From: a virus
Virus record (IMG/VR): IMGVR_UViG_3300042905_004067
Direction: 5' to 3' (one strand)
DNA: 64,000 bases
Every line of letters begins with the position of its first letter. The stretch's first letter is position 1. The translations under genes were made by a program, and so were the position numbers. Shown here piece after piece: positions 15,656 to 61,748 of the stretch. A model generated the notes under the pieces. The model had not been told where the DNA came from and made no database searches. It saw only the letters and a program-made list of their open reading frames with translations.

Positions 15656-15657
15656 AA

Positions 15658-17195: not shown

Positions 17196-17205
17196 AGTAA
17201 AAATC

Positions 17206-17331: not shown

Positions 17332-17334
17332 ATA

Positions 17335-18048: not shown

Positions 18049-18051
18049 TTT

Positions 18052-18654
18052 TTATTTTTTCATAAATTGTATCGATTCAGATGTTCTATCATCATATCGA
18101 TACAAATGTAGTATCTTATTTATGTGTGTTTCTGATTTTACTTTGGGATACATCAAAAGACACCAAGCAAAATCTTCACCATATGAAGATGCTTCAAGTT
18201 TTGCTTGTTTTGCTATTTCTGATTTCCAGAAACACATATGAAATGGTGGGCGTTTTACATGAGTCATTCCCGGAATATATCTCTCATTCGGATTGTTCAT
18301 GTTAAAATTAACTATAAATTGATTTCCATTTACTATGCAGTGCTGATCAAAACTTATAACATCGGCTGGTTTTTCTTTTATAGTATTAATAATAGTTGAC
18401 ATATAATCATCAGTAATATCATCGTCATCATCCATGAAAGCAATCCATTTACCTCTAGCAGAGTCTAAGAGTGCTTGCCGTTTTTCGCCAATAGTCATAC
18501 TTTTATTATCAATCAGGCAAAGAATTTCAACCTCTGGATAGTTTTTTGTTTGCTCTAACATTTTATTGTATAGGGGTATTAGATATTTTTCAATTCTAGA
18601 TGGTATTGAAAGTATAAGTATACTGACTAAAACGCTGTCTTTATCAGTTGGCAT
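18052..18654 (-). CDS. GT2 glycosyltransferase
   Basis: SILILS, IGEKRQ, ARGKWIAFMDDDD, GED. Confidence 0.85.
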   Translation of the reverse strand: MPTDKDSVLVSILILSIPSRIEKYLIPLYNKMLEQTKNYPEVEILCLIDNKSMTIGEKRQALLDSARGKWIAFMDDDDDITDDYMSTIINTIKEKPADVISFDQHCIVNGNQFIVNFNMNNPNERYIPGMTHVKRPPFHMCFWKSEIAKQAKLEASSYGEDFAWCLLMYPKVKSETHINKILHLYRYDDRTSESIQFMKK

Positions 18655-19501: not shown

Positions 19502-20342
19502 TTATTTTATTCCAAAGATAATCATCACTTGATTGTAATTTTTTTATTTTGTCAAAGTTTTCTTCAACGGCATCTAGTTTAGAATAATAAAGTTCTGGTG
19601 TCAATGATTTAATATCAAAAGTTTCATTTAATAAAATTATTCCATTAATGTTAAACAACTCACCAATAGCAGGATTCCCAAGATAAACTGGAATAGTTCC
19701 TGTGGCAAAACAGTCTGTCAGTTTTTCCGTATAATAACCATCATAGAAATCATTCTCCACTACTATATGAAACATATAATCCTTCAACCCAAACATTTTG
19801 CTTTTCCATGGCTGAGTTGGATCTGTTTCAGGAAGTTTAGGAGAACCACAGGCACCACCAAACAAATCTAAATTATCTTTAAATCTATTTGCATATCCAT
19901 GACGAATCATGTGTCCTTTTGTGTATTGTTTATGAGATGCAACCATACTAACTAACTTTATTTTGTCGTATATTGCATATTCCGACTCAGGAATCCACGG
20001 CAAATTACTTCCTGCCGGACAATATTTAAATACTTTAGAAAAAGATACTAAATTTTTATCTGATACAAAAATTGTTTTGAATCGTTTTTCTAGTTTATCA
20101 TAGTTCCAAGATAAAAACTGAGAAAGATTATTTACTACGGATCTGGACTCGCACACCCATCCATATATTTCAGTTATTCCGGGTGGAAGTTGCTCATACT
20201 GCATAATTGTATTATCAATTAATACAAGTTTATCTATATTAGAATACTTAGGTAAAGACCATTCAAAGTTTTTAGGTTTTCTATTTGAACACGATGAACT
20301 ATTCACATCAAAAGGAAATCCATAACCAAAAAGTTTATTCAT
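19482..20342 (-). CDS. GT10 (alpha-1,3-fucosyltransferase-like) glycosyltransferase
   Basis: YMFHIVVEN...GYYTEKLTDCF..GTIPVYLG. Confidence 0.85.
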   Translation of the reverse strand: MNKLFGYGFPFDVNSSSCSNRKPKNFEWSLPKYSNIDKLVLIDNTIMQYEQLPPGITEIYGWVCESRSVVNNLSQFLSWNYDKLEKRFKTIFVSDKNLVSFSKVFKYCPAGSNLPWIPESEYAIYDKIKLVSMVASHKQYTKGHMIRHGYANRFKDNLDLFGGACGSPKLPETDPTQPWKSKMFGLKDYMFHIVVENDFYDGYYTEKLTDCFATGTIPVYLGNPAIGELFNINGIILLNETFDIKSLTPELYYSKLDAVEENFDKIKKLQSSDDYLWNKINETNYS

Positions 20343-45397: not shown

Positions 45398-45833
45398 TAT
45401 CTAAAGCCTTTTTTCTACTTCTGGACTGATTCACTATGTCCTGAAGATCACTTGTTGAACCAACATAAATTGCATTGGTTGTTTTATTATTTACCGTAAT
45501 TTCTTCTTTTTGAATATTTTTCTTTTGCTGATGCAGATCAATTAAATCTTTATTCATTTCAGCAAGTTGTTTTGCAAAATTAGAAACTACTTCGAATCCT
45601 CTGGGAGAGTCTAAACTTTCTGCCAAAGATATGGCATTTTCAAGACTATCTTTTCCCTTTTCTATGAGTTCTTTTAAATTCTGTCTAGCATATTCAAAAT
45701 CTGAATCAATTTTTTTAGTATCTTGTGGTTCTTTTGGTTGAACTGGAACAAGAACTTCTTTTGGGTTTGATTTAAAATCTACACCTAGACTTTGAGATAT
45801 AGAATTAAAAACATTTGGAACATCATCTGTCAT
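45381..45833 (-). CDS. 16: Terminase small subunit gp16
   Basis: DFEYAR.NL, SPR.FEV, N.IYVGST.DLQ. Confidence 0.9.
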   Translation of the reverse strand: MTDDVPNVFNSISQSLGVDFKSNPKEVLVPVQPKEPQDTKKIDSDFEYARQNLKELIEKGKDSLENAISLAESLDSPRGFEVVSNFAKQLAEMNKDLIDLHQQKKNIQKEEITVNNKTTNAIYVGSTSDLQDIVNQSRSRKKALDNDEQR

Positions 45834-46498
45834 AGTGTGTCATCCTCCAAGATATCGATATTCATTTCTTTAATAATTCCAGAATCACTTTCTTTAATCT
45901 TGGAATATATGTAAGCCTTTGCGGTAAATTGTAAACTAGTATATAATTCTCTTCTTGTAGAAAAATCACCAGTGGTAAACTGATCATTAAATGATACGTT
46001 GTTCAATACAATAGGAACGTCTATTTTTGTATCCAATTCATTCATCTTTAAAGTAACAACAAACTCTGGAGAAAAATAAGGTATAACTTGCTCAACTATT
46101 TGAAGACTGTCATCAACGTTTCTTGCAAAAACATGTAAGTAATATTGAACGTTATATGGAACTTCAACAAAAGATTGATATGTGGTGGCTTCTGCTCCAG
46201 TTCCAACCGTTTTGACTTTTTTGTTTATTTTGTTAACTTTTCGCTGAGGATCATATTGAATAGTAGTTAATTCAAATGCTAATCTTGGAAGCATTGTTTC
46301 AATTTTTACATTATTTGAAATAGAACTTGCTTCAGTTAATCTTCTAACAAATTTTTCTTTTCCAGAGTAAGTTAAAGGGACACGCTTTCTCTCTTCCATC
46401 CCGGTGGATGTTTCTTTTGATACATAAATTTCATCAAATAAACCACCAAACGCTAATGTTAGTTTTTTAAGTGTATGATTGTAAAAATATTGAAACAT
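45830..46498 (-). CDS. 15: Tail sheath stabiliser / completion gp15
   Basis: FGGLF, VPLTY..KEKF, LPRLAFE, QIVEQ..PYF.P. Confidence 0.93.
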   Translation of the reverse strand: MFQYFYNHTLKKLTLAFGGLFDEIYVSKETSTGMEERKRVPLTYSGKEKFVRRLTEASSISNNVKIETMLPRLAFELTTIQYDPQRKVNKINKKVKTVGTGAEATTYQSFVEVPYNVQYYLHVFARNVDDSLQIVEQVIPYFSPEFVVTLKMNELDTKIDVPIVLNNVSFNDQFTTGDFSTRRELYTSLQFTAKAYIYSKIKESDSGIIKEMNIDILEDDTL

Positions 46499-47412
46499 TA
46501 ATAAGTTCCTTCAGAGAATGGATCTATTTCGGTAAAATCATAAATCTTCATAGAATCACCTTCACTCTTAATATCTTCATTATCTCCTACTTCAAACGTT
46601 GTGACCGGTGTAATTGGAATAATCAAATTACTTCCAGTAATTCCTGAAACATAGTATTCTGCTCCGGAATCTTTTCCTCGTATAGACTGAGATCCATATA
46701 AGAATGAGCCACTAATTCCATATATTTCCATTGTATCGGTGCTGCTGTAGAATTTAACTACCTTTGCTTCTGCGGTTGCATTAGCATAATTACCTCCAGT
46801 AACACCAGCCACCTGAAACACGGTTTCTCCATCGTAAAATATTTTACCGGATGATATTTCACTAGAGAATGTAAATATGGAAATAGATGCTTTATTTTCT
46901 GTTTCTACAACATCAATATCAGTATCACCAGTTTCAAATTCATCATTATCAATTGTTGTAAGTTCACATGTTAATGCATAAGTGTATAACTTTCCTGCTT
47001 GATAAAATGGATTTTCATGTTCAACGAAGTTAATTTCAAATAAACCTTTTGTCAGAGGAAAATAAATTAAATCACCTTCTCTTGGTCTGGTTATCGTGTC
47101 ATAATGATCGGATACTTCTTGTTTAAATCTTTTTCTGGAAAGAATAATAATTGCTTTATCTCTAACTTCTAAACCAAATTTAGAAACTATATCTCCCTCG
47201 CCTTCAAAGCCATTAACAGTAGCAATATACATTTCTATAGGAAATGATTTACTAAACTTATAACGAGCCTCACCGAACTCTTCTTCGATGTTGTACTGTT
47301 CTCTTGGAATATAAAGCATATCTCTGCCCATCGTTTTGATGATCTCTATTGAGAGATCTTCGATGACATTTTGCTCTCCAGAATAATCTTTGAAGTATGG
47401 ATTTCTTGCCAT
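46498..47412 (-). CDS. 14: Neck protein gp14
   Basis: YIPRE, SKFGLE, RPREGDLIYFP, FVEHE.PFYQ, DPFSE. Confidence 0.93.
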   Translation of the reverse strand: MARNPYFKDYSGEQNVIEDLSIEIIKTMGRDMLYIPREQYNIEEEFGEARYKFSKSFPIEMYIATVNGFEGEGDIVSKFGLEVRDKAIIILSRKRFKQEVSDHYDTITRPREGDLIYFPLTKGLFEINFVEHENPFYQAGKLYTYALTCELTTIDNDEFETGDTDIDVVETENKASISIFTFSSEISSGKIFYDGETVFQVAGVTGGNYANATAEAKVVKFYSSTDTMEIYGISGSFLYGSQSIRGKDSGAEYYVSGITGSNLIIPITPVTTFEVGDNEDIKSEGDSMKIYDFTEIDPFSEGTY

Positions 47413-47413: not shown

Positions 47414-48220
47414 TTATCCCATCATGAAGTTTATTGGTAGTTCGTATTCAAGTTGAACTTGTTGTTCTATTAGTTCGATTTCCTGCATTGCTTCTTGAAC
47501 AATTTCAGGACCACGAAGAGTTACACCACCCGGAAGTTGAACACCACCAAACTTAGACATATTCATGCCCCATTGTCTTTTTATGAGAGCAGTTAAATAT
47601 TTCTTTAGAAGTCGATCATTGTATATCTCAGTAAATTTGTCTGGGCTTAAATTAACATATGCTTCGATCATCAAATTAGAACCAGCAATTAATTCTTGTT
47701 GCCAATTCATTTCTATATGAAGTTTATTTGTGACTTTACTAAACCGAATTGTCTTCTCTGGTTGAAATAGATCTTGAATTAAATTAATATAACGTTTGGT
47801 GCTGTCATACTGACCAAGACCCATATTTCGACTCGACATCAGATTAGTATTAATACCGAAGTAATCTGTTAAAGCCATTTGATAACGAATATCAAACATT
47901 GAAATATTACTGAAGGGTCCAAATTGAAACACTTTTACTATGGATAAAATGTCTGCTCCGGTTGGACCATCTCCACCAAATCCATTTACAGGACCTAAAG
48001 CATCAGTATCAATATACTGATTGGTTATATCTTGTGCTGTAACTGGATATAGAAAGAATGCTTTTTCAACACCATCAAAGTGTCTCTCTGAGAAATACTG
48101 CAAAGCATCATCTAATCTATCCTCACACTGTTGCCAATCAACGTTGATATCCACAACTGGTGCGCCCAGTTGACGTAAACTATACTCAATTAAAGTTTGT
48201 CTTGAGTTTGGTGCAGCCAT
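47414..48220 (-). CDS. 13: Neck protein gp13
   Basis: LRQLGAPV..INV, HFDG, KRQWG.N..KF..VQLPGG. Confidence 0.95.
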   Translation of the reverse strand: MAAPNSRQTLIEYSLRQLGAPVVDINVDWQQCEDRLDDALQYFSERHFDGVEKAFFLYPVTAQDITNQYIDTDALGPVNGFGGDGPTGADILSIVKVFQFGPFSNISMFDIRYQMALTDYFGINTNLMSSRNMGLGQYDSTKRYINLIQDLFQPEKTIRFSKVTNKLHIEMNWQQELIAGSNLMIEAYVNLSPDKFTEIYNDRLLKKYLTALIKRQWGMNMSKFGGVQLPGGVTLRGPEIVQEAMQEIELIEQQVQLEYELPINFMMG

Positions 48221-48256: not shown

Positions 48257-48847
48257 TTACTGCAAGGGTTCTGTGTTGAGTTGTTGCTGTTTTTGTTCAG
48301 CCATTTTTGCTTCGCGTTCTTCCATAGCCTTTTTCATTGCTTCGGGCATTTCTGGAAGAGTGACGGGCAATTTGTTTAAATCCTCAAACGAGATATTTTC
48401 AATGTAATATTTTCTCGTAATTGGAGAAATGGCTTCATCTGGTTTACTTGCTGAATAGTTTGTAAACCCAGGCATGGTAATTGGGCAGTTCAACTTTGGA
48501 TAATCCAATTTACTGTAATCATTACCATTTGCAACCAACCAAGTTCCTTGTCTATCACCGCATCCACAACCACCGCAGTAATATTGTCCTTGTGTCTTAC
48601 TTTCTTTGAGATGTTCGCATGGGGGCAAAACTCCACCCAAATGCTTGTCACCAAAGCAACTCAAAACACGAAGTTGTTTTGTCGCTTTGTTTATCTTTTT
48701 CTCATTTAGACCACGAGAAGTCAAAGACATGGCAAAACTTTGAATCATGCCTATTTTCTTTGAAATTACTGATTTCCCATCTGGGACTGCTACGCTACGA
48801 AACTCAATAGGATTTGGTTTATTAGAACAGGTATTTTCTTCACTCAT
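48257..48847 (-). CDS. Hypothetical Cys-cluster protein (possible metal-binding)
   Basis: SCFG...PCEHL...YCGGCGCGD...NCP. Confidence 0.6.
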   Translation of the reverse strand: MSEENTCSNKPNPIEFRSVAVPDGKSVISKKIGMIQSFAMSLTSRGLNEKKINKATKQLRVLSCFGDKHLGGVLPPCEHLKESKTQGQYYCGGCGCGDRQGTWLVANGNDYSKLDYPKLNCPITMPGFTNYSASKPDEAISPITRKYYIENISFEDLNKLPVTLPEMPEAMKKAMEEREAKMAEQKQQQLNTEPLQ

Positions 48848-48852: not shown

Positions 48853-51423
48853 TTACTCCAATTCAATTCTTCTTATTAGTCGAACATTTACTTTATCTGT
48901 TCGTGGTACTAAGTATATAGACCCGTAATCTACCTTCTTAAAACTTTGTCCGTACATAAAGGCTTTATCATTAAATATTTGATCATCTATGTTATAGGTT
49001 GTATCTGTATTTACTCTGAAGAATGGGGTAGAAGTTAAGTATACCGCACTATTCATGGATTTAAACACTTCTGGAATAAAGAAACCGTGATTGATTTTTA
49101 AATTAATAAATTCTAATTCATTTTTAGATGGAAGATACCAGCCAGAAAGACGAGAACGGTCTCTTAGGTTCTCCATTGCCTTTCCTTGTATACCGTAATA
49201 AACTTCATTATCACCATAAGTATTCCATAAACCATCATACAGAGATGCAGGAATTGTTTCTAATTGTTCTCTTTTTCCTTTTATGGCTTCTAATTCAAAA
49301 TCAAATGGTGCTACTATAATTGCCCATTTTTTGGCAGTTGTTCCATATCCAACAATACTTGGTTTGTAGTTTACTGCCGGTCCTGTGAATGGTCTTCCAT
49401 TTACAGTTGATCCTTCATAGTTTAGTGGAGAACCAGGCTCAAATATTCCAACATATAACCCATCTTGATAATATGTTAATTCTGAATCTGGTAGAGTATC
49501 CTGTACTTGAACCGATCTTAAAGGAGCATTTCTTTCGCAATTTGCGTCTGTACAATCATCACATGTTTCTAGACCCGGATTTTCAGAACAACATATACCT
49601 CCACTTCTGAATCTTCCATCTAGATTTTGACAATTACCTTGTGTAGTTTGTATGCAAGATCCTTGATCGACACATGTACAACAACTTCCGGGTATTTGAT
49701 TGTTGCATACATCAATATCTGGAACAACAGTTGCTTGACATGAGCCATTGACACAGGACAATGAAGTTACATCTGTTATTGAATATGCTGGTTGATTATT
49801 AAAATCATCAATAGATCCTAGTTTTTCAAATTTATTTTCAAAATCAACAGCAAAACAATAATCGTTTGATGGGTCTAAAGGACCAGCACCTTTTATATTA
49901 CTACAAGAAACTAATTTATATTTCTTAGAGCGCACATATGAATTTGGTATTTCATCGTTTAATGAAACACAAGTCATGATTCCATCTTGTTCTATCCCAC
50001 AGAATGTGTGAACACCGAAAGATGCATTTACATATTCTTTAGGTGGCAAACTTCTAATCATGTCTCGAATTTGTTGTAATTCACTAGATTCATCCATGAA
50101 TGGTGAATAATAATCAAATGTATTATCTAACTTTTGACCAGCAAAACCAATTGTTGAATAGTCTTTATCATAAAAATCAAATCCAATTGGAGCAGAATTA
50201 TGTTGATATAATTTTTTTAATTTTAGAGCAGGAGAATAAGTTTTGTATTGTTCTGTATCTGGGTTGTAAAATCTTCCTTGAATTTTTACATTTGGATTTG
50301 TGGTATTTGTTGATGCCCATGCACTAAATGTTCTTGTAGCAATTAAATCTAAAACTGCACCAAGCACATCCCCAACAGGAGATTCTGAAGAATTTTCGAA
50401 TCTAGAAAAAAATCCAGTAGATGCGTAAAATACACCAGTGTTATTTTCAGTTATACCACCAAAATAACCATCATAATATCTTCGTGGTTCTTCTATTTCA
50501 TTTGTATATGATAAACTTCCCGGGCACACTTTTTTAAGTTTAATGTCTCCGGATTTAGCCAAATTTAGTAAATTTGGTACTTCGTTTTCTGGCCAAAAAA
50601 AGCCAGGAAGTAAATAATTTTGCTCACCAGAGATGTTTTGTGTGTTTTGTATAGTTGCAACATAATGAGTAATTTTGTTTAAAAATTTTCCAGAAAAATA
50701 TTTATCATAAAAATCTTCTTTAGCAGAACATCTTTGTGTTGTGCCTGCTCCATACACCCAACAAAATAAATTTGTACCATTATCACATGAATTTAAAACA
50801 TTTAAATTAGTTTCATTCAATTGACATTCAAGAGAAACCGGAATTGTTCCGCCAACAGACTCATCGCACTTTCTTCCATTATTATAGAAAGTAGAAATAT
50901 ATGGAAATATTGTTTTTTCAGCACATTCTTTTTCGTTGCAAACGTCAGTACACTCCGAAGAAATTGTTCCATCATCTTGAACTTCTGGATGACAACATGC
51001 TTTTTTAGGTCTAAAATCAATAACATTGGATTGTTCTGGTGTTCCAGTTTTACACAGAGCATCTATTTGTGTTGGTGTTTGTGTAGAACTGCAATCATAA
51101 TTAAGAGTCCATAATCCACCAATAGATTCACATTCGCACAATGTTGTATTTTTGACATATGTAGAGGTATCTGGGGGAGTAAACAAAGAACATGCACAAC
51201 AACACCCAGTAGATGCCGGAGTAATTGTATTATTTGGATCACATGCTCCGGACATAAAATAACCATTTAACTGATTGCATTGAGATAATGTTGTATCTAC
51301 AAATTGACCTACAGTATTTGTATCAGCATCAAAAACATAACAACAACCAGTGACATTAGTAGTTTGAATATAACTGCTATAATCTACTATTGTTTGAGAT
51401 CTTGTTCTAAAGTTTATAGACAT
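48853..51423 (-). CDS. Cys-rich putative virion protein with C-terminal DUF1566/CLec-like domain
   Basis: GCC/ACC/GSCC repeats; GWYLPSKNEL...YLTST...VRLIRR. Confidence 0.6.
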   Translation of the reverse strand: MSINFRTRSQTIVDYSSYIQTTNVTGCCYVFDADTNTVGQFVDTTLSQCNQLNGYFMSGACDPNNTITPASTGCCCACSLFTPPDTSTYVKNTTLCECESIGGLWTLNYDCSSTQTPTQIDALCKTGTPEQSNVIDFRPKKACCHPEVQDDGTISSECTDVCNEKECAEKTIFPYISTFYNNGRKCDESVGGTIPVSLECQLNETNLNVLNSCDNGTNLFCWVYGAGTTQRCSAKEDFYDKYFSGKFLNKITHYVATIQNTQNISGEQNYLLPGFFWPENEVPNLLNLAKSGDIKLKKVCPGSLSYTNEIEEPRRYYDGYFGGITENNTGVFYASTGFFSRFENSSESPVGDVLGAVLDLIATRTFSAWASTNTTNPNVKIQGRFYNPDTEQYKTYSPALKLKKLYQHNSAPIGFDFYDKDYSTIGFAGQKLDNTFDYYSPFMDESSELQQIRDMIRSLPPKEYVNASFGVHTFCGIEQDGIMTCVSLNDEIPNSYVRSKKYKLVSCSNIKGAGPLDPSNDYCFAVDFENKFEKLGSIDDFNNQPAYSITDVTSLSCVNGSCQATVVPDIDVCNNQIPGSCCTCVDQGSCIQTTQGNCQNLDGRFRSGGICCSENPGLETCDDCTDANCERNAPLRSVQVQDTLPDSELTYYQDGLYVGIFEPGSPLNYEGSTVNGRPFTGPAVNYKPSIVGYGTTAKKWAIIVAPFDFELEAIKGKREQLETIPASLYDGLWNTYGDNEVYYGIQGKAMENLRDRSRLSGWYLPSKNELEFINLKINHGFFIPEVFKSMNSAVYLTSTPFFRVNTDTTYNIDDQIFNDKAFMYGQSFKKVDYGSIYLVPRTDKVNVRLIRRIELE

Positions 51424-51424
51424 A

Positions 51425-54400
51425 TTAACAACTCTCGTATAAATTGCATTCTGGACATATTATATGTACACATAGTCCTTCATCAAGTTTTACATATTTT
51501 GTTTTTTCACCAGTTTTTATTCTTGTTAATGGTTCAGTTTGACCAACTGTTGATGGTGAAACTATGTAAGCATTTATCCATTGTGCCTCAGTTGGTCCAT
51601 CCTCACATGATTCACTATTGCTACCACCGGAGCCACCACCGGAGCCGCTGCCGCCTCCGCGTCCTCCACTGATAACTGTACCACCACACTCATCCTCCGT
51701 CCATGTTCCATAGAATGAACAAGAGTCGAGGCATGCATCTACACAACAACATACATTCTTACAGTCACATAAAGCTTCAACACCAGCGCCACATGATTTT
51801 TGCCAATATGCACCTTGTATAAAAATAATAGGAACTGCGGTTCTTTCTGCTTGAGAAAGTGATTTTGCATTTGAACCATTTAAATGGGTTGTTTGTGATC
51901 TATTATAAAAAACAGAATATGTTCTATATGCTTCTAAATTATATCGAAGGTTTCTTCCTAAAATTCCCCTTGGTATGCCTCCATATAATTGATCGGTTGT
52001 GCCGTTCCCCGGTGATTGAAGCAATGACTCACAGAAATCATTCAGAGGATCTCCTGTCGTAGATGAGATGCCAGCAGCCCAGGCTGGGGGAAATGCATCT
52101 TGAGAAAAACCAATGTTGTCCCTAATTGGATCTTGATACTCTCCGTTTTCATCGGTATCAGTAGTACATTTTAATTTTCCTCCAGTACCAGGCACCTCAA
52201 ACCACAATTCTCCAGTTGAATAAAGAAAATCCCCATGAAGTAACGTTTGTTTTCTAGGATAAAATAAAGTAACACTGGTGCTCGATATGCCTTCACCATC
52301 AAATGTAGAGCATAGTGAGGTATACCCGTCTTCACACAATCTATTAATAGGATCACCATAAAATCCGTGTCTGTAGTAATTCACAAAAGTATTAACCCTA
52401 AATGTCCATAAAGGATCGCTTGTTCCTGCTTCTGGAATATCATTCGATCCTGGATTATTAAAATCAAAAATATCATTACAGTTGTTCAAAAAACCACAAT
52501 TGTCTGCTATTGAAGACCAATATGACCATTGTATTCCAGCGCCCTTATAACTTTTGCTATTACACAACATATATGGATCATATTGTAAATAACCTTCTTG
52601 AACACATCCCGCTCCAAATAGTTTTTTACCACGGAATGGGCTATCTATCCATTCTGTCCAAAAAAATTCTGGCGTTTGATCCTCGAATACATAATCACCA
52701 AGAAGTCTATTATAATAAGTATTTCTACTATTAAAATTCTGTATTTGTAATAACTCTAAAGGCGACGGATCTGGATTAGGAGAATTGACAGTGGCATTTA
52801 TGCTTTCTGGTACTCCCATAGACTCTTTAATTCCACGAACCATATTTTTAACAACTTTCAATTTACCAGACGCCGCTCCGTTTTCAATATCAATATAATC
52901 TGTATGCAACAAATCCATAAAATATTTTAATTCACCATTAAACGTTGCTAAACACATGTCAGTTATTGTTTTGTAATTTAACAAACGAAGATTGTGTGTA
53001 ACCCTAGCATGTCTGTTACTACCACAAACCCGTCTGTCAAATTTATAAGTTATTCTTCCCCACAGTGGAGGAAATGGTGCTAATATTCCATTTTCAATTT
53101 CTTCTTGATATGGTTCAAGCTTTTCAAATGTTGTTTGAAAATTTGATGGTGGTTGACTTAGATTAGTAAAACCGTACTCAATCGGAGGAATTGGATCACA
53201 TAGTTTGCAGTCTGTTTGTTGATCTGGTGTATAACCAAATCGCGTTAAACATCTTGCTCGTGTTATAGAAGGATTACTAGTTTTATTATATGATCCAACA
53301 TAATAACATTTAAATTTACCGCGAACTCCTAGTACATCAGCAGATGTTCTAGTATCAATCTTTAACTTATCTACTGGATAAGATGGACTATTAGTATTAT
53401 CTGGCCATTCTTCTATAAAGTATGGAATTTGAACTGGTGTAAATAGATCTGTTTCTGAATCTAATTGAATTTGTTTTACTCCAGTTTTAGTATTAATAGT
53501 AACATCATCGATTTGTTTACTGTTTAATTTATTTGCAATATTTTCATCTATTAATGCTACTGCTCTGTATGGTGCTTGAGATTGTTTAATAAATTTTTCT
53601 TTCCATACACTCTGATCAGCAACTAATTCTGCAACTCTTTTACTACCAATTGATTCTAAGTATTCTCCTAGAGTAGAAATACCAGCATCTATATCATCTG
53701 GTGTTGGATTGGTTATGGATAAATTATCCACACCAGGAACCAGGTCTGGTTGAATTCGCAACCATTGTCCAGGATCGTTTGGTGCAATATTTGGGTTACG
53801 GAATCTTCCGTCATATAGTCCTTGATATTTAATATAACCACCCATCATTCCACCATTTGGTTCTAGAACAATTGGACTCAATAATGAATCAGTGATACCA
53901 TTATTTTCAATATGAGCAAAGCACCAGAAACATGCAACAGTTTGTTCTTCCCCAGAACCACCACAATCATTAGAACAATCACATGAGTCGTTAGGATGTG
54001 TTTGTGGGCACGTTTGTGTTATTGGAACTTGAGTAGAAAGACATTGACATATTTCGTTAGTACATGGTTTAAAGCATGTTCTTAAATTACAGTCGTAATT
54101 GGTGCAATTTCCGTCATTAAATATTCCTTGGCCGGGAACTTGACCACACCCACCGCATAATTGTTTATCTATACACTGACCGTCTTGTTGGCATTTAGAG
54201 CATTCTACGGGACTGCAAAAACCAACACATTGTTCCTGAGTTGTAAAATAGTTACTACTACCAATCGTAGAATATTCCTCACAAGTTTCACCTGGTCTTA
54301 AATTAACAGAAACTTGCTGACAATTGCATTGATTATTTTCTGGAAGAGTATTGCATCTGTAACAAGTGGATGGGACGGTATTGCAGTCACATTTAGTTGT

Positions 54401-55981
54401 ATCACAGTTTGTATTTTTACCCATGTAAATACCATTTAGTGTGGTATTGCATTCATATGGTGTTTGTACCTCTTGACAAGAATATCCATCTTCTACTGGA
54501 ATACAGCAAGCACCCGGAGCAGATACTGAATCGCAGCATTTTGCTTCAGAGCAACTGTTAACATTTTTTACTGTTTTTCCACCAAGATATTTACAATATT
54601 CTTCTGTTAATTGCCCAAGGCACTCTCCATCTTTACAGCAATAAACTGATGTATCTTTGCAGTTATTATAGCATAGACCAGATTCAACAAGTACACTTCC
54701 ATCTGAATTATATGTTGTATAATTTTGTGCATCGTTGTCTGGAAAAATACCAACATCACCACATGTTATTCCTGAAATAAATTGACCATTAATTGCTTGA
54801 CAAAAACTTGGATCAATATCAGATATACATCTTCCTTCTGAACAGCAAACACCATCATAAGTTTTTTGTGCAGTATCAGTTATGCATTTATTTTTTGTAC
54901 AAGGAACCATAGGTTCAAATGTACCATCTCTCTCATCACAATACGTTTGAGTTACATAATCTTCACAGTGTTTTTCATCATCCACATCAAAATAGCAGCA
55001 TGATCCTCTTAAGCCTGGATTTATGGCTTCATTAACTCCAAACCCTCTTGCTGTAAAATGTGCTCTCCATTTATCATCTTGGTTAGTTCTCCACATGTGA
55101 AGAATATTCATGCCTGGATAGAATATGGGTTTGCTTGCCTCATCAAAAACCACATCTGATGGAAAATTCCAAACATCTTCACCATCAATAAACAATGTAA
55201 CAGACATTACTTGACCGTCTGGGATTGCATCGTATTTGAATCCCTTAATACCAATTGGAGTTATTAACTGATAAACTGTTGCCCTTGAAACATCTAAAGT
55301 AATTCCTTCTGGGCTGCCCTGGTCAAAGAAAGTATCTGTAGTGACAATTCTTTCTCCACGCTCTATTGGACCCAAGGTAAATAAAGTGTCTCGAATATCA
55401 GTTACTACATTTCTTCCGCTAGATTCTGTACCAAAATTAATATATCCATAATCATTATCACCAACTCTGATTGATGAATTTGCTCTTTGTGGAGCAAGAT
55501 CAGTAGACATTACATAGTTTCTTTGTTTAAAATAAACTATTCTATTGTTTTCTGTAGAAGCAGATATACCTCCACCAATATTTTGATCTAAGATAGTAAA
55601 CTTTAGATTGTCAAAAGACGAATAAGTGACACCCAAAATACCGCCAGATCTAAAGTTATAAAATTCTAAAGTTATTCCACCACATACGCCTTTTAGAACT
55701 GGGATTCCTGTTCCAATTGTTGTTGCAGTAATTCCCGCATAAATTCCAGTAGCACCTTTAAAAATGCCAGGAGAAACAACTGTTCCATCAGATAAAGTAA
55801 ACTCCACTTGTCCGGTTGGAGTTACATTTACTAAAGTAATGTAATTTGAATTTATTCCAGTTGATCCAGTGGGACCGGGAACTGTTTGGTTTGCTCCTGT
55901 GGGTCCGGTTGGACCAATAGATCCTGCTGCACCTAAACCAGTACTTGGAAATATAGAACTATGACCAATATTATTTGACAT
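51425..55981 (-). CDS. Large Cys-rich putative tail/fibre protein (1518 aa)
   Basis: N-terminal GPT collagen-like triplets, multiple G(S/V/A)CC repeats, Cys-rich C-terminus. Confidence 0.6.
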   Translation of the reverse strand: MSNNIGHSSIFPSTGLGAAGSIGPTGPTGANQTVPGPTGSTGINSNYITLVNVTPTGQVEFTLSDGTVVSPGIFKGATGIYAGITATTIGTGIPVLKGVCGGITLEFYNFRSGGILGVTYSSFDNLKFTILDQNIGGGISASTENNRIVYFKQRNYVMSTDLAPQRANSSIRVGDNDYGYINFGTESSGRNVVTDIRDTLFTLGPIERGERIVTTDTFFDQGSPEGITLDVSRATVYQLITPIGIKGFKYDAIPDGQVMSVTLFIDGEDVWNFPSDVVFDEASKPIFYPGMNILHMWRTNQDDKWRAHFTARGFGVNEAINPGLRGSCCYFDVDDEKHCEDYVTQTYCDERDGTFEPMVPCTKNKCITDTAQKTYDGVCCSEGRCISDIDPSFCQAINGQFISGITCGDVGIFPDNDAQNYTTYNSDGSVLVESGLCYNNCKDTSVYCCKDGECLGQLTEEYCKYLGGKTVKNVNSCSEAKCCDSVSAPGACCIPVEDGYSCQEVQTPYECNTTLNGIYMGKNTNCDTTKCDCNTVPSTCYRCNTLPENNQCNCQQVSVNLRPGETCEEYSTIGSSNYFTTQEQCVGFCSPVECSKCQQDGQCIDKQLCGGCGQVPGQGIFNDGNCTNYDCNLRTCFKPCTNEICQCLSTQVPITQTCPQTHPNDSCDCSNDCGGSGEEQTVACFWCFAHIENNGITDSLLSPIVLEPNGGMMGGYIKYQGLYDGRFRNPNIAPNDPGQWLRIQPDLVPGVDNLSITNPTPDDIDAGISTLGEYLESIGSKRVAELVADQSVWKEKFIKQSQAPYRAVALIDENIANKLNSKQIDDVTINTKTGVKQIQLDSETDLFTPVQIPYFIEEWPDNTNSPSYPVDKLKIDTRTSADVLGVRGKFKCYYVGSYNKTSNPSITRARCLTRFGYTPDQQTDCKLCDPIPPIEYGFTNLSQPPSNFQTTFEKLEPYQEEIENGILAPFPPLWGRITYKFDRRVCGSNRHARVTHNLRLLNYKTITDMCLATFNGELKYFMDLLHTDYIDIENGAASGKLKVVKNMVRGIKESMGVPESINATVNSPNPDPSPLELLQIQNFNSRNTYYNRLLGDYVFEDQTPEFFWTEWIDSPFRGKKLFGAGCVQEGYLQYDPYMLCNSKSYKGAGIQWSYWSSIADNCGFLNNCNDIFDFNNPGSNDIPEAGTSDPLWTFRVNTFVNYYRHGFYGDPINRLCEDGYTSLCSTFDGEGISSTSVTLFYPRKQTLLHGDFLYSTGELWFEVPGTGGKLKCTTDTDENGEYQDPIRDNIGFSQDAFPPAWAAGISSTTGDPLNDFCESLLQSPGNGTTDQLYGGIPRGILGRNLRYNLEAYRTYSVFYNRSQTTHLNGSNAKSLSQAERTAVPIIFIQGAYWQKSCGAGVEALCDCKNVCCCVDACLDSCSFYGTWTEDECGGTVISGGRGGGSGSGGGSGGSNSESCEDGPTEAQWINAYIVSPSTVGQTEPLTRIKTGEKTKYVKLDEGLCVHIICPECNLYESC

Positions 55982-55992
55982 TATTTACTTTC

Positions 55993-58941
55993 TTATCTAC
56001 AGGAGGAACATGTATTCATCGTTTTAAAACTATATTCAAATTGATTTTCATAATTTTTAGTTTTAAAGTATATAGGAATCATTCTACATGCCCTTAATTT
56101 AGCCTGTTGAGAAGATTTTAACAATGAAACCATTTTTCCAGTTGAGAAATCCTGAGTATAGGCTCGGTGTGCCTGTGTTGTTTTATATTTTTTCCAAGTA
56201 TCTAACAGTCCGTCTGGTGAAGACAGAGGATCTTCTAATGAAAAATTATAGTTTTCATAATTTTTTACACCGAAAGAACCAGATTCTGCCGATTTAATTT
56301 CAATGACTTTTCCGCCAGTAGTAGAAGACCAATATTTATTTTGATTTGATATTGTTTTCCAAGAAGAACTATTTGAATTATAAATTATTCCTTGATTGAT
56401 TGCATCTAAGTTGTGATACATCATGTTTAGTTCTAAAGCACTTGGTATGTACCAATCAGAATAACCGTTATACATCTGTTTATTTTTAGAACTAATTTGA
56501 TATAAAGCCGTTGTTTGATTGTTTACGGCATACCACATTTCTTTATACTTTTCTTTGAAGTATGTTTCGTTTGTTGTGATTAAATTTTCATCAATTGCTG
56601 ATTGCCAATAATTTGCTTTGCTATGTTTAAATCTTAACATAGCAAGAGGATCTATGGTTTTAGGGGTTCCATCGATAATATAATTGTTTCGTATGAACCA
56701 AGTATTTCTTTCGATTGTGGTTTCATCAAATAGTCTGGTATTTAATAACCCATCAAATACTGTTGTTCCATAGGGTGTCAATACATTATTTTGCCATAAA
56801 CTGTCTGTGTAATTTTTCATGTAACTTGGTACACTGAAACCGGAAACAGACATACTCATACCAAACGACAATGTATCACCAAAATCTTCTGGAGCAACAA
56901 CAAGAACCCATGCATTTGGTATATTTTCGCCGTGAATGTGTTTTGCAAATTGTTTGTATGCTAATATAGAATTAAAACCATATTTTTTGTTTGTTCCACC
57001 ACCATCGTTGCAAGATTTACTATCTTCAGTGAAGCAAACATCACTTAGTCTATTGTAGAATGTTAGTTTATACTTATCTGGATATCCAGAAAGGGATTTA
57101 ATATCCTTTATTAATATTTTTCCGCTGCTGTCGCCTAAGTTTTTAGAAGTTACATACCTAGAAGGAGAAAAATTAGAGCAGTTACAATTTAATCTTGAAT
57201 TAAACACACCATTTACTGCAATATAATTTTTTATTCCAGTGCCTTTAGCATTTTCTATTTCTGATATAACTTCGCCTCTTGCAAAATAACCAGAAGTATC
57301 AAAACCGGATGGTGGAGGATAGCCAACAAATCCTGCGACGATTCCTCCTTCAAAATAATCTCCAATTTGTAAACTATTTGTTATTTCAATATTTGCATCC
57401 GTTAAAACTCTAGTTGAAGCAATTCTATTTTCTAGCGTATCTGTACAGCAAGATGAATTGGCGCAAACACTTGTTGGTCCTTGATAAATGCCACCTTGTT
57501 CCATACATTCTTTTGGTGTTAAGTTATCAATGCATTCTGTTTTTCCAAAACAGCAAGCACCATAAATGCCATCAATGCAACAATTTCTTTCTTCACATGG
57601 AACTTCTGCGTAAATCCCGTTTAATCCCCTACAAATATCTTGAGATGCGTCGCTTAAAGGCAAACTATAACACGTTCCACTTACGCAGCACGATGCATCA
57701 TTATCTGAAACAGTACAAGTATCCGGGCATCCACCTTTTATGTTTAGTTCTGAGCATCTTATATTTTGGAAAAATGTTCCAAAGACCTTATTACAAACTT
57801 CTTTATTGGTTTCTATACAAATTCCATTTACACAACAAACACCACCAGAATAACAATCTCCTGTTAAATATCTTTCGTTACATGATTTAAAACTAAAGTT
57901 TCCTTTTATATTTTCACAAAATGCTTTATTAACGTAATCAATACAAGTTCTGCTAACAATTGAGCCTGTTCCTTCTGGATCATTTGTGCAGTAACAGCAA
58001 GAACCAATTATTGAAGAAGAATATGTTTGATTGGAATATGTTATTCCTTTTCCAATCATGTCTATTTGAATAGGACCAGTTAGTGCAACACCAATAAATT
58101 CGGGGGTATCAATAAAAGTAATTCCTTCTACTCTAAATGACATTTTAGGATAAAGATTACCATCTTCATCTTTTACTGTTATAAAAATTCCCTGATCTGT
58201 TCTATTAAATATTCCAGATGAATTTGAAGTTAATGCGTATGATACGTCAACTTGGTTTAATACTTCATTGACTTTATCGTTTTCAACATTTATCCAGTTT
58301 AAATTGCCTGTATAACCAACTTTAAACTGAGTTGTGTAGTCTTGATTTATTTTAAAAGTAAAATTATCTAAAGTTAGTCCAAGTAAACTTCCAGAAACCG
58401 GAGATGTAATATCTCTATTATATCTTGTTGTTGAATCTCTTGTAGGAACTGCGGAAAGATCACCGGGACCAGTTCCTGAATCTAAGTATAACAACCCACC
58501 AGTTCTTCCAAATATAGAACTGGGTGCTGAGGGACTTTCGATATAAAAAGAATCAAAACTAATTCCGGCAGTTGCTTCTCCTTCTACCTTTAATGATTTA
58601 AACAATAAATGGTATGGATTATTCCCGGAAAAACCAGCAAATAAACTAAAGTGTGTTGAGTTTCCAGTTTCTTGTATTTTTAAATTTGGATTTGCTACAC
58701 GAAGTATTGATCCACTGGGTGCAGTAACTCCAAAAGAAACAAATGTGTTATTTGTATATGTTATACCAAAGACATAATTTTCTATAGACGAAATAACATA
58801 TGAGGCACCACTTGCGCCTGTTGGTCCAGTTATTGAAAAACCAGTAATACCAATAGGACCAGTTGGTCCTGTAGCACCACGAATATAAGTTACACCAGAG
58901 ACTACTAAGTTACTTGGTATTGTCGAAGAATAAAAGGGCAT
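55993..58941 (-). CDS. Cys-rich putative tail/fibre protein with DUF1566/CLec-like domain
   Basis: GATGPTG N-terminus; four CC repeats; IGDYFEGG; SDWYIPSALEL...YWSST...RACR. Confidence 0.6.
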   Translation of the reverse strand: MPFYSSTIPSNLVVSGVTYIRGATGPTGPIGITGFSITGPTGASGASYVISSIENYVFGITYTNNTFVSFGVTAPSGSILRVANPNLKIQETGNSTHFSLFAGFSGNNPYHLLFKSLKVEGEATAGISFDSFYIESPSAPSSIFGRTGGLLYLDSGTGPGDLSAVPTRDSTTRYNRDITSPVSGSLLGLTLDNFTFKINQDYTTQFKVGYTGNLNWINVENDKVNEVLNQVDVSYALTSNSSGIFNRTDQGIFITVKDEDGNLYPKMSFRVEGITFIDTPEFIGVALTGPIQIDMIGKGITYSNQTYSSSIIGSCCYCTNDPEGTGSIVSRTCIDYVNKAFCENIKGNFSFKSCNERYLTGDCYSGGVCCVNGICIETNKEVCNKVFGTFFQNIRCSELNIKGGCPDTCTVSDNDASCCVSGTCYSLPLSDASQDICRGLNGIYAEVPCEERNCCIDGIYGACCFGKTECIDNLTPKECMEQGGIYQGPTSVCANSSCCTDTLENRIASTRVLTDANIEITNSLQIGDYFEGGIVAGFVGYPPPSGFDTSGYFARGEVISEIENAKGTGIKNYIAVNGVFNSRLNCNCSNFSPSRYVTSKNLGDSSGKILIKDIKSLSGYPDKYKLTFYNRLSDVCFTEDSKSCNDGGGTNKKYGFNSILAYKQFAKHIHGENIPNAWVLVVAPEDFGDTLSFGMSMSVSGFSVPSYMKNYTDSLWQNNVLTPYGTTVFDGLLNTRLFDETTIERNTWFIRNNYIIDGTPKTIDPLAMLRFKHSKANYWQSAIDENLITTNETYFKEKYKEMWYAVNNQTTALYQISSKNKQMYNGYSDWYIPSALELNMMYHNLDAINQGIIYNSNSSSWKTISNQNKYWSSTTGGKVIEIKSAESGSFGVKNYENYNFSLEDPLSSPDGLLDTWKKYKTTQAHRAYTQDFSTGKMVSLLKSSQQAKLRACRMIPIYFKTKNYENQFEYSFKTMNTCSSCR

Positions 58942-61748
58942 TATAGAATATTCCTTAGTAAGTCAGGTACTTTCCATAATTTATATGAATCACTTGTTGA
59001 ATCTGGATATAATCCATCACATCGCATTGCTCGAATTGGTCTAATTTTTAATTCTTCTGTTCTATTTTCTTTTTTAACCTTATAGTTTTCTATTTGTCCA
59101 GAAGAATCAAAATACATTCCCCAAGCAACAGAACCATGTTCTGGTTTTCCTGATGTATAAATTCCTTCTCCGGTGATACCAGTGTCGAATGAACCAGTCG
59201 AAGACCAGTGCCATCCATATAAAGGAATACCATTGTTTGCAAGAAGATATTGATTCACGTTAAAACCATAATATTTATTTGTTGAATCATTTACCGTATT
59301 AGCCGCAATAAATGCTAGTTCATCGTGACTAGGAATGTACCAATCGCTTAGTTGCTCTGGATTTGCGGTTAAACCATGAGAGTTTTGATAATCATTATTA
59401 TCAAATAGTTTTAGCGCCCACAAAGAGTTCATTGTTATACCGGCGGCAAATTCATCATATGTGAAAATAGAACTACTATTAATCTTTAAGTAATTTGCAT
59501 TATCTGCACATAACATTCGAATAGTATTGTAGAGTCCCCAATTTCTGTGCCATAATCCATTTGAAGTTTTTATATTTCTTGCAAAAAGTCTAGCAATTGG
59601 ATCTGTACCATTTTTTCTAGTAGAATAGCAAGTTTGGAAAGTGTTTGTTTTTATGTTATCTAAACTCTCTCCAGTTATTCCATAAAATCCTTCACCATAT
59701 TGTAAATATTCTTTTTCATAAGTTTTATCTAAGAATGTAAAATCACTATAAGAATTATAAATTGGAGACAACATTGGACCCCATGCAATACCACTGCCAT
59801 ACCATGCAAATTCTTCTTTGAATACTTCCTCTTGAGTTGGATTTACTCCATTTAGATCTCTGTCTACCGATGCAGGGTAAAGAGAAACTATTATGTAATA
59901 TGAGTCTGTATCTTTTCTTCTTAACGCGGCACATGTTTCTCCGGTAAATCCATATCCGATGTAATCACACTCGCTTTGATAATAATGACTCGTTGTTTCT
60001 CCACCAAACATAAAATCTGCGGTGCTTCCGTGCCGCGAGAATGCATGTCTTGCTCCTAATATTTTTGATTTGTTTGGACTATACACACCAACCACCATTC
60101 CACCACCAAACAAATCTCCAGGTTTTAGTGGTGTCTCTAAAAATCCTCCACAACGTAAAGATGAATTACATGTAATACCGGAGCAAGATGAATTTGTTCC
60201 AAAATAGTAACCACCATTTTCGAAACAAGTTTCTGCTGTAGAATTTGTGCATGTTCCTGTTGAAGTGCAACATGCACCGGTTCCAGTTGAACACACAGGA
60301 TCTTTAGAATTTGCAACACATGAAATTGCTTTTCCTAAGAAATTTCCGCCGCTTAAAATACAATCAATTTGTGTCTTAGAGGTGCAATTTCCTTTTCCAT
60401 CACAACATGCCCCTCTATCTTCAAAACATTCAGAACAATCCACGGTTGAACATATAGTTTCAATTCCATTAAAAACTGCTTGTGTTGAATTATTATTCAA
60501 AGCCAAACAATCATCTACTGATATATTTTCTAAGCAGTATGTGTTTACTTTTCCATCTATAGTATTTTTTACGCAGCAAGAACCATTTTGTTGAGAACAC
60601 AAATACGATCCAGTTATTCCACAAGTAGTTCCTGCTCCCGCAAAGAAGCCATCACAGAATTCGTATGTTGTATATGTGCAACCACTAACGCCAGTGCAGC
60701 AAGCACCTGTCATTCCATTATAACTTTGTAATATTCTTTGTGCTTGTAATGGTAATTGCTGATTTAAATCTGCACAGAAAAAATCATCCACATTACTATT
60801 TTTTCCAAAAATATAACCATAATATTGTGAATTTATATTAACAAAGTGTATTACTATATTTTGATTTTGTAATGGGCATGGAATTTTATTAAAAGGAAAC
60901 ACGACAGGTATACCAGAACCGTATTCAAATTCTGGAGGTATAAAAGTAGTTAACCAGTTTCCGTTTTGAAGATGCAACGAAAAAGAATTAATTATACTGC
61001 TGTCTTGTATACTAATAGTATTAACACCTTCGAAAGACTGATTACGGAAATTTTCTAAATCAGCAGAAAGTATTTTAGATCTACTAGATCTTTCTGATGT
61101 GGTTGGGTATATAAACCAAAGAGGTGTTTGAGTAATATTAAATGGTTTATCATTAGTACCATAAATTGGAGATTCTGTTTTTTCAAATACATTTGCTTTA
61201 TTGATTTTAATAGACTGTGCTAGTTTTCCGTATTTTGCAGAACCTAATGTTGCACCCACTAAATTTCCACCACCATCAGTTGCCAAAATATCTGTAAGTT
61301 CACCATAAAGATGGGTATATGTTCCATCATAGCGATCAACATTAACCAAAATTTCTCTGTTTGAATTTTGATTCGTAAGTTCTATTGAAGAACGAATTCC
61401 AGTAGTTCCCTCTAATTTTCTTATTACTACTGTTTGTTGTGATGGAATGCTACTTTTAAAAATGTAACCAGTTCCTGTTGAACCAGTTTTTCCATCCATT
61501 AATATGGAAGTATTTCCAGTTATGCCTTTAAATAAACCAGTTGCAGCAAAAGTAATTCCATTTTGAAATGTGCTTATGAGCGTATAACCAGATAAAGTTA
61601 TGCTAGCAAATCTTAAAAATGCAGTTGCACCAGTTGGCCCTGCTAGATCATTTCCTCTTGGGCCCTGAGGACCAGTGCTTCCGGTTGCACCATAAACCGT
61701 GATGCCTTTTATGGATTTAAACTGGCTACTACCACGAATTGATGGCAT
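58941..61748 (-). CDS. Cys-rich putative tail/fibre protein with DUF1566/CLec-like domain
   Basis: GATGSTGPQG N-terminus; four G(A/S)CC repeats; PGDLFGGG; SDWYIPSHDEL...WSST...RPIR. Confidence 0.6.
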   Translation of the reverse strand: MPSIRGSSQFKSIKGITVYGATGSTGPQGPRGNDLAGPTGATAFLRFASITLSGYTLISTFQNGITFAATGLFKGITGNTSILMDGKTGSTGTGYIFKSSIPSQQTVVIRKLEGTTGIRSSIELTNQNSNREILVNVDRYDGTYTHLYGELTDILATDGGGNLVGATLGSAKYGKLAQSIKINKANVFEKTESPIYGTNDKPFNITQTPLWFIYPTTSERSSRSKILSADLENFRNQSFEGVNTISIQDSSIINSFSLHLQNGNWLTTFIPPEFEYGSGIPVVFPFNKIPCPLQNQNIVIHFVNINSQYYGYIFGKNSNVDDFFCADLNQQLPLQAQRILQSYNGMTGACCTGVSGCTYTTYEFCDGFFAGAGTTCGITGSYLCSQQNGSCCVKNTIDGKVNTYCLENISVDDCLALNNNSTQAVFNGIETICSTVDCSECFEDRGACCDGKGNCTSKTQIDCILSGGNFLGKAISCVANSKDPVCSTGTGACCTSTGTCTNSTAETCFENGGYYFGTNSSCSGITCNSSLRCGGFLETPLKPGDLFGGGMVVGVYSPNKSKILGARHAFSRHGSTADFMFGGETTSHYYQSECDYIGYGFTGETCAALRRKDTDSYYIIVSLYPASVDRDLNGVNPTQEEVFKEEFAWYGSGIAWGPMLSPIYNSYSDFTFLDKTYEKEYLQYGEGFYGITGESLDNIKTNTFQTCYSTRKNGTDPIARLFARNIKTSNGLWHRNWGLYNTIRMLCADNANYLKINSSSIFTYDEFAAGITMNSLWALKLFDNNDYQNSHGLTANPEQLSDWYIPSHDELAFIAANTVNDSTNKYYGFNVNQYLLANNGIPLYGWHWSSTGSFDTGITGEGIYTSGKPEHGSVAWGMYFDSSGQIENYKVKKENRTEELKIRPIRAMRCDGLYPDSTSDSYKLWKVPDLLRNIL

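Follow-up and report, generated by a model that had tools for sequence, protein, structure and literature searches.

We examined four consecutive genes, here called A, B, C and D, at positions 48853-61748 of a 64,000-nucleotide (nt) stretch of DNA (the window) from IMG/VR virus record IMGVR_UViG_3300042905_004067, whose source is an uncultured T4-like myovirus. We propose, with a probability of about 0.7, that A-D are co-transcribed fibre or receptor-binding proteins, that B, C and D form trimers with disulfide-stapled stalks, and that A, C and D end in lectin-like, glycan-binding tips. Fibres of this general kind are known; what is most new is the cysteine-rich repeat within them, which belongs to a family absent from the domain databases and has a candidate link to the iRhom homology domain (IRHD).

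An earlier reading of the window, made from its letters without database searches (hereafter the sequence-only reading), had placed four open reading frames (ORFs) here, and its limits agree exactly with those we find: the ORFs lie back to back on the minus strand, with intergenic gaps of at most 11 nt. Cysteine makes up 3.5-5.3% of A-D, compared with 1.17% overall (median 0.89%) in the window's other 54 ORFs of at least 100 amino acids (aa), and is clustered, reaching 10 per 50 residues. Judging from sequence, none of A-D has a signal peptide and all four are soluble. The main features of the array, located in part with hidden Markov models (HMMs; i-E, the E-value of a single unit), are as follows:

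48853-51423, minus strand: gene A (ORF, 856 aa, 40 Cys), with a Cys-rich N-terminus at residues 24-230, a marginal unit at 579-626 and a W-Y-L-P-S..E-L motif at 755-778 (HMM)
51425-55981, minus strand: gene B (ORF, 1518 aa, 80 Cys), with a D-like N-terminal module at residues 13-289, four units, a further Cys-rich zone and a long C-terminal part (HMM)
53912-54373, minus strand: second Cys-dense zone of B, residues 537-690, 7-10 Cys per 50 aa, no significant unit
54374-55006, minus strand: four units of B, residues 326-536 (i-E 7e-10, 5e-9, 6e-7, 2e-9)
55993-58941, minus strand: gene C (ORF, 982 aa, 35 Cys), with a match to phrog_4245
Within 55993-58941, minus strand: Lcl_C-like C-terminus of C (Pfam Lcl_C E 5.5e-4, below the family's cut-off)
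57436-58005, minus strand: four units of C, residues 313-502 (i-E 5e-9, 9e-10, 1e-8, 1e-13)
58941-61748, minus strand: gene D (ORF, 935 aa, 33 Cys)
58944-60146, minus strand: predicted C-type-lectin/formylglycine-generating-enzyme-fold domain of D with insertions, residues 535-935 (VIA-align; nearest Lcl-CTD/DUF1566)
60150-60707, minus strand: four units of D, residues 348-387, 389-444, 446-489 and 491-533 (HMM)
61611-61691, minus strand: interrupted Gly-X-Y run of D, residues 20-46, five triplets

The six-cysteine unit, its family and its fold

Twelve units, four each from B, C and D, were aligned (alignment A3, from which the four candidate units of A were omitted and in which the second unit of B was cut at residue 415). 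Columns C3, C4, C10, C18 and C32 are invariant, and G23 and C37 nearly so. Each unit thus carries six cysteines in the order CC, C, C, C, C with a glycine before an aromatic residue, and the same columns recur in an alignment of 82 two-unit rows (A4, described below). The full set of six cysteines occurs in 2254 of 2326 bacterial units and in 441 of 548 viral ones. Within the 12-unit alignment no conserved His or Asp stands alongside them. The cysteines are too invariant for pairs to be deduced from joint loss, the sole hint (C2 with C6) coming from four units in all, a number too small to be of use.

Building a repeat HMM, a check proposed in the sequence-only reading, recovered the units of B, C and D whether the model was trained on bacterial or on viral sequences. 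An HMM made only from the units of seven bacterial proteins scored D at 55.8 bits (E 2e-18), C at 32.9 bits (2.7e-11) and B at 25.0 bits (8.4e-9; seven-protein set), and one made from 339 distinct units of related viral contigs found exactly four units in each of the three proteins (i-E 1e-13 to 4e-6). Across 17 orthologues, the 26 cysteines in the repeat zone of D are 96% conserved, compared with 34% for its other non-glycine residues. The HMM scores and this conservation rule out chance or low complexity as the source of the units. A search of the window for direct DNA repeats of at least 45 nt returned none involving 48853-61748, which rules out a recent DNA duplication and indicates that the units are old.

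Pfam, PHROGs and NCBIfam contain no named family for the unit in A-D; the 82 two-unit segments matched no Pfam family even at E <= 1, and a search of the ESM Atlas with D 340-535 gave no usable match. The A3 profile, made from window units only, nonetheless matched 4074 representatives of 50%-identity protein clusters among 1.84 billion at E <= 1e-3, of which 1653 reached E <= 1e-10 and 248 reached E <= 1e-30; in the listed proteins it matched between 7 and 38 stretches each. The matched proteins that we looked at are mostly large secreted bacterial proteins from Phycisphaerae/Planctomycetota and Candidatus Eisenbacteria, and 25 of their N-termini are mostly signal-peptide-like. When 17 bacterial repeat proteins were picked and searched against Pfam, only accessory domains were found (PKD, dockerin, FlgD_ig, DUF7467 and fn3), and the repeat itself was covered by no family. 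By its sequence, then, the unit is a member of a large family of extracytoplasmic bacterial repeats, which is defined here and which no Pfam, NCBIfam or PHROG model covers. The bacterial 'GACC' proteins and the phage proteins have the same six-Cys unit and match each other reciprocally by HMM. The bacterial proteins are GC-rich and signal-peptide-bearing, with PKD, dockerin or FlgD_ig ends and a very regular spacing of ~41 aa, whereas the phage units are AT-rich and more variable in loop length, and number only four per protein here.

To model the unit we used alignment A4, which consists of D 446-531, four other window segments and 77 bacterial segments (of 86, after a redundancy filter). AlphaFold2 gave a two-unit model with a mean predicted local distance difference test score (pLDDT) of 85.3, in which each ~40-aa unit folds as strand-strand-helix-strand, and the repeat family thereby gains a confident fold model. 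At E <= 10, Foldseek aligned this model to only four PDB chains, each an iRhom from an ADAM17-iRhom complex; 8snl_B ranked first, with a probability of 0.99, a root-mean-square deviation (rmsd) of 1.9 A over 39 columns, 31% identity and E 0.14. VIA-align, run against 48,161 chains, also placed 8snl_B first (Z 4.1, rmsd 2.3 A over 42 residues, iRhom2 568-610), with nothing else notable. Profile searches gave the same answer. Among 177,635 PDB sequences the A4 profile matched only iRhom2 and iRhom1 at E <= 10 (1.7e-3, 2.0e-3, 0.012 and 0.017), in two stretches per iRhom, the stronger being iRhom2 571-609, and all four matches of the A3 profile at E <= 10 were likewise iRhom1/2 (3.1e-3 to 0.017). 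Two profiles and a template-free fold thus pick out the same iRhom residues and nothing else. Among the BFVD folds, the two-unit model found nothing below E = 4.

The IRHD is described as stapled by eight disulfide bonds, and the authors of the iRhom2 structure report no similar structure in the PDB or the human AlphaFold set and call the fold 'unprecedented' (PMC11248996). Nothing in the PDB apart from the IRHDs of iRhom1/2 (8snl, 9o58, 9xy4, 9q7y) matches the unit, whether by sequence or by fold. These IRHDs have the same CC...C...C...C...C spacing and strand-strand-helix-strand shape, and are extracellular and disulfide-stapled. The IRHD differs in that it is a single globular domain, containing no more than two unit-like parts and set between transmembrane segments TM1 and TM2 of a rhomboid pseudoprotease, whereas the phage unit is a free tandem repeat in soluble fibre candidates and the statistical support for the likeness is borderline. 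Neither a rhomboid domain nor any other Pfam domain was found in A-D, which lack the placement between TM1 and TM2. The largely open-access literature that we searched yielded no paper naming the repeat and none linking the IRHD to prokaryotic or phage repeats.

From this evidence the unit is probably related to a sub-domain of the IRHD, which gains its first candidate relatives outside animals, and the origin of the IRHD becomes testable. A bolder version, which we rate at somewhat less than even odds, is that the unit found in these phage proteins and in thousands of secreted bacterial proteins is homologous to the block from which the IRHD is built. If that were true, the IRHD would have arisen from an ancient microbial extracytoplasmic repeat, and a T4-like clade would build its adsorption fibres from disulfide-stapled modules that have to oxidise once they have left the reducing cytoplasm.

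Fibre-like architecture, lectin-like tips and gene position

The domain order of D is a Gly-X-Y start, an N-terminal domain, four Cys units and a lectin-fold tip. Short collagen-like triplet runs also open B and C, bearing out the earlier remark that three of the proteins begin in this way: B has 5+3 triplets, C has 5+3 (residues 22-47) and D has 5 (+2 after a break), and A has no such run. Glycines G20, G23, G26, G29, G32, G37 and G40 of D are invariant in 18 orthologues. These runs fall short of the long uninterrupted Gly-X-Y stretch expected of Pfam Collagen (PF01391), which matched none of A-D and one of 18 D-family members (0.0024).

Kinship among the four proteins is uneven. In BLASTP, B matched C through the repeat zone (2.7e-9) and D through the N-terminus (4e-5), C also matched D, and A matched none of the others at E <= 0.01. 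A profile of the N-terminal part of D (335 residues) covers B 13-289 (3e-12) and, in C, only the Gly-X-Y part at 16-61 (3e-9); B and D have a common N-terminal module of ~290 aa. The corresponding C-terminal profile of D (400 residues) found a short W-Y-[IL]-P-S..E-L motif in A 755-778 (3e-5) and C 802-875 (5e-3), the E-values of both profiles referring to a set of only seven proteins. The statement in the sequence-only reading that all four are related therefore holds for B, C and D, which BLASTP and HMMs link, but A is tied to them only by this weak C-terminal motif. Beyond its units B goes its own way, with residues 690-1400 matching only unnamed metagenome proteins. Residues 1395-1440 of B (51662-51799) form another Cys-dense zone with no unit match, followed by a Gly/Ser-rich linker and a final ~60 residues with four cysteines in the sequence.

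The tip of D is predicted to adopt a C-type-lectin fold nearest to Lcl-CTD/DUF1566. VIA-align with D 529-908 gave as its best match 4eps_A, the Bacteroides ovatus fimbrial protein BACOVA_04982 (Z 12.0, 203 residues, 16% identity); this fimbrial subunit has no Cys units, and only its C-terminal part aligns to D. The Legionella Lcl-CTD (8q4e_A) aligned with Z 9.0 and an rmsd of 3.4 A over 127 of 131 residues at 20% identity, in a region where the model is moderately confident. Matches with Z 6.5 (among them chain 8oks_B) were to the tip of Bdellovibrio Bd2740 and to TvpA; others were to Mtd (Z 4.8), PvdO, a paralogue of formylglycine-generating enzyme and many C-type lectins. At the sequence level, 8 of 18 D-family members matched Pfam Lcl_C (PF07603) at E <= 0.01 (best 1.3e-4), and A, B and D of the window gave no match. 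When a D-family profile was searched against PDB sequences, the sole matches (E 0.01-0.9) were to Gly-Ser-Thr linkers and BclA, and we discarded them as chance.

Lcl-CTD is described as a trimeric carbohydrate binder behind a collagen-like stalk (PMC11162425). Lcl and D have in common a collagen-like segment followed by a C-terminal domain of Lcl_C type. They differ in that the phage tip is ~400 aa long with large insertions, the Gly-X-Y segment has only 5-8 triplets, and four Cys units lie between the two; moreover, Lcl is a bacterial surface adhesin, whereas D is a phage fibre candidate whose family's Pfam scores are sub-cut-off. Mtd of Bordetella phage BPP-1, the DUF1566-class targets of diversity-generating retroelements (DGRs) and the Bd2740 MAT fibre are comparable as trimeric fibres with a C-type-lectin-fold tip that recognises a cell surface; DUF1566 is given as one class of DGR variable proteins (PMC5758913). 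The array differs from DGR targets in that direct repeats of at least 45 nt in the 64-kb window include no template/variable pair for its genes, and in that the window ORFs to which Pfam was applied include no match to a reverse transcriptase.

Every gene in the window, which has ~33% GC, lies on the minus strand, and downstream of the array Pfam and PHROG matches follow T4 order: gp13, gp14, gp15, TerL, sheath, portal, prohead protease, scaffold and gp23. The nearest of these genes, and the small ORF that closes the array, are:

45830-46498, minus strand: gp15, tail-sheath stabiliser (T4-gp15_tss, 9.8e-62)
46498-47412, minus strand: gp14, neck (T4_neck-protein, 3.7e-30)
47414-48220, minus strand: gp13, neck (phrog_211, 1.6e-36)
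48257-48847, minus strand: small Cys-containing ORF (196 aa, 7 Cys) between A and gp13

In a related viral locus, L024, genes upstream of the array encode a baseplate wedge subunit (phrog_438, 3.3e-9) and a tail-fibre-like protein (phrog_4492, 2.6e-7). On the T4 map, gp9-12 and wac are found between the baseplate wedge genes and gp13. Because a baseplate wedge gene lies upstream (in L024) and gp13, gp14 and gp15 lie downstream, the array sits in the place of T4 gp9-12/wac. The likeness is one of position only, between the baseplate wedge genes and gp13; the difference is that A-D match no Pfam or PHROG family of those T4 proteins. To our knowledge, the fibres of T4 are not Cys-rich.

The same arrangement recurs in other uncultured viruses. 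At E <= 1e-3 the repeat zone of D matched 28 proteins other than itself, of which about 19 are metagenome orthologues of ~920-1050 aa; none has a functional name, and two are labelled only 'hypothetical protein'. The alignment of D relatives (A2) contains 17 of the 28 and leaves out P0005, which is a fragment, P0016, P0021 and P0023, which are bacterial or weak, and also P0022, P0024 and P0025-P0029. IMG/VR contains 130 stretches that encode a D relative, and we kept 66 loci. These have 30-42% GC and carry a D-like ORF followed by further repeat ORFs, with three repeat ORFs in 43 loci, two in 12, one in seven, four in two and five in two. Where the contig is long enough, many loci continue with an A-like ORF that matches the C-terminal profile of D and then with a Cys-containing ORF of 177-201 aa (3.6-4.5% Cys). 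This multi-gene array of probable fibres is conserved across these 66 related viral loci, in a clade of uncultured T4-like phages whose lectin-like tips would be the parts relevant to host range. Some relatives are much more extreme: an ORF of 1210 aa has 15.9% Cys (L079, 17820-21449), one of 1246 aa has 15.7% Cys (L084, 17794-21531), and one of 1922 aa combines 13% Cys with 12 units (L073, 16452-22217).

Weighing the fibre reading against its alternatives

On the reading we favour, the short Gly-X-Y run and the N-terminal domain of B, C and D would start trimer formation and attach the trimer to the particle. Four tandem modules of ~40 aa and six cysteines, with three disulfides per module, would then form a compact, stiff stalk or spacer. 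The chains of A, C and D would end in a C-type-lectin-fold domain of the Lcl-CTD/DUF1566 kind that binds a host surface glycan, and B would carry a different C-terminal part. The disulfides may form when the particles are released into oxic water, or later. Established here are the membership of the unit in its family, the conservation of its cysteines, the position and synteny of the genes and the modelled fold of the D tip, whereas virion location, trimers, disulfides and the glycan ligand are inferences. Genomic context and fold give the fibre reading good support, and the disulfide reading is supported by analogy: we favour disulfides because the sole solved look-alike, the IRHD, has eight of them and because the bacterial relatives whose N-termini were read begin like secreted proteins. 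Five related viral records (29-87% complete) revealed no DsbA and only sub-threshold thioredoxin-like matches, which makes oxidation after lysis in oxic water the simplest guess. Either way a biochemical question is raised, of how at least 24 structural cysteines per chain come to be oxidised, or loaded with metal, when the virion is put together in the cytoplasm. The suggestion in the sequence-only reading that the repeats are stalk modules in a multi-fibre adsorption apparatus fits the gene position, the domain order and the conservation of the array in 66 loci.

Several observations weigh against the favoured reading. We infer, rather than observe, that all four proteins belong to the virion, and the cytoplasm in which they are made is a reducing one; DsbA was found in none of the five related viral records, and the thioredoxin-like matches came from only two of them. 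In A, the bacterial HMM gave a full E of 7 and the best unit found by the viral HMM (579-626) had i-E 3.3e-3, so that the earlier claim of a repeat in all four proteins, correct in its motif and for the four significant units in each of B, C and D, is not confirmed for A, which is Cys-rich after its own fashion. B has no tip recognisable by Pfam or by a similarity search with residues 690-1400. Structure prediction, which the sequence-only reading had put forward as a check, succeeded for the two-unit segment but gave a poor model of full-length D (mean pLDDT 55, with confident patches at 540-650 and 740-915). Foldseek found nothing at E <= 1e-3 in the PDB for the full-length D model, and nothing at that threshold for the two-unit model. 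The Pfam Lcl_C scores all lie below the 34.9-bit gathering cut-off (C scores 20.6 bits, E 5.5e-4), and D 184-317 resembles baseplate and tailspike adaptor domains weakly (VIA-align Z 5.4-6.0). The iRhom link is borderline, with E from 1.7e-3 to 1.7e-2 and Z 4.1 on a 40-residue Cys-rich unit. Finally, tblastn against 50,697 phage records found no relative of D or B in an isolate phage.

The difficulty of forming disulfides in the cytoplasm could be avoided if the six cysteines of each unit instead bound metal (for example two Zn), the modules folding in the reducing cytoplasm as metal-stapled knots. Proteins without a signal peptide must fold there, no DsbA was found in the five viral records, and six invariant cysteines without a free partner are compatible with a binuclear cluster; Erv1/ALR was also absent from these records, although its positive control stayed silent, so that this search is uninformative. 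Metal binding is a serious rival but nevertheless unlikely, since the one comparable solved structure is an extracellular domain stapled by disulfides, the N-termini of those bacterial relatives that were read are signal-peptide-like, some of these relatives carry dockerin, PKD or FlgD_ig domains that suggest an extracytoplasmic place, and no His or Asp is conserved beside the cysteines. Gene position bears on a different alternative, that some or all of A-D are neck whiskers or capsid or collar fibres with the role of wac, which sense the environment or stick to particles, rather than receptor-binding baseplate fibres. The array ends directly upstream of gp13, which in T4 is the place of wac, and the weak fold matches of the D N-terminal region include a capsid spike (9ny6_C, Z 6.0). 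We consider this improbable as well: tips of this lectin fold bind receptors in Mtd, Bd2740 and Lcl (PMC10769870, PMC11162425), and the genes just upstream in L024 are a baseplate wedge gene and a tail-fibre-like gene. That A-D are not structural at all, and are secreted or host-surface factors made during infection, is suggested only by the fact that the unit resembles parts of proteins that bacteria secrete. It is a far-fetched reading of proteins that have no signal peptide, whose genes belong to the late structural block and are closely spaced with those for neck and baseplate, and which keep their Gly-X-Y starts and fibre-like architecture across 66 viral loci.

The repeat in bacteria, the host and the rest of the window

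The sequence-only reading stated that GACC-like repeats are common in Planctomycetota (Phycisphaerae) proteins and took this as a tentative hint at the host. The link itself is genuine. Of 20 clusters looked up, three had an organism assigned (Phycisphaerae, Planctomycetota and, unexpectedly, the amoebozoan Mastigamoeba balamuthi), and six genome loci were found with the bacterial protein P0021, from Planctomycetaceae, Phycisphaerae (two), Candidatus Eisenbacteria and 'bacterium' (two). The protein with the amoebozoan label (P0037, 1672 aa, 32 matched stretches, E 4e-84) is listed as EukProt Mastigamoeba balamuthi; the unit may occur in a eukaryote, or this record may reflect contamination or transfer. 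We surveyed two phyla and E. coli K-12 with the A3 profile, at E thresholds that differ among the surveys: matches were found in 3 of 121 Planctomycetota genomes (E <= 1e-5), in 12 of 101 Phycisphaerae genomes (E <= 1e-3) and in 7 of 61 genomes sampled from the phylum of an Eisenbacteria metagenome-assembled genome (MAG; E <= 1e-7), and the single E. coli K-12 genome gave none. The repeat family is patchy and not specific to Planctomycetota. In the Eisenbacteria-phylum sample the repeat is massively expanded. Two bacterial MAGs reached through loci L003 and L005 (G002 and G004) contain at least 134 and at least 135 matches, respectively, to the unit profile derived from the phage, and these are spread over dozens of large ORFs.

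A phage that had taken the repeat from its host could be expected to infect Planctomycetota, specifically Phycisphaerae. Both taxon-labelled proteins among ten asked about came from Phycisphaerae or Planctomycetota, as did three of the six genome loci, and the 12 matching Phycisphaerae genomes point the same way. The inferred host nevertheless did not survive comparison and is very doubtful. The repeat is at least as frequent in the Eisenbacteria phylum, even at the stricter threshold used there (7/61 compared with 3/121). The window has ~33% GC and the related viral loci 30-42%, whereas all 148 of the 150 listed A3 matches that were examined (the other two carried earlier ids) have a GC-rich amino-acid composition. 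Phage and bacterial units are only ~30-40% identical, which rules out a recent transfer. TerL, for its part, is nearest to cyanomyophages, with a best identity of 58.8% among 2664 matching phage records.

Transcription signals and several genes outside the array deserve brief mention. The T4 late-promoter motif TATAAATA occurs twice in the window (1-64000), compared with 8.9 occurrences expected by chance, and neither in the array nor in the structural block. The late promoters of this phage must differ from those of T4. The 196-aa ORF that closes the array resembles only viral hypothetical clusters, with a weak zinc-finger match (NCBIfam HVO_0649, E 0.013), and may encode an assembly factor. 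Between regA and the fibre-side genes, Pfam identified ~17 kb of sugar-building genes (3786-20342), which encode glycosyltransferases, NeuB, a DegT aminotransferase, epimerases/dehydratases, a sulfotransferase and a thiamine pyrophosphate (TPP) enzyme. At 904-3234 a 776-aa protein has a true long collagen repeat (PF01391, 6.4e-31, three stretches), and its DNA contains the sole tandem-like direct repeats of the window.

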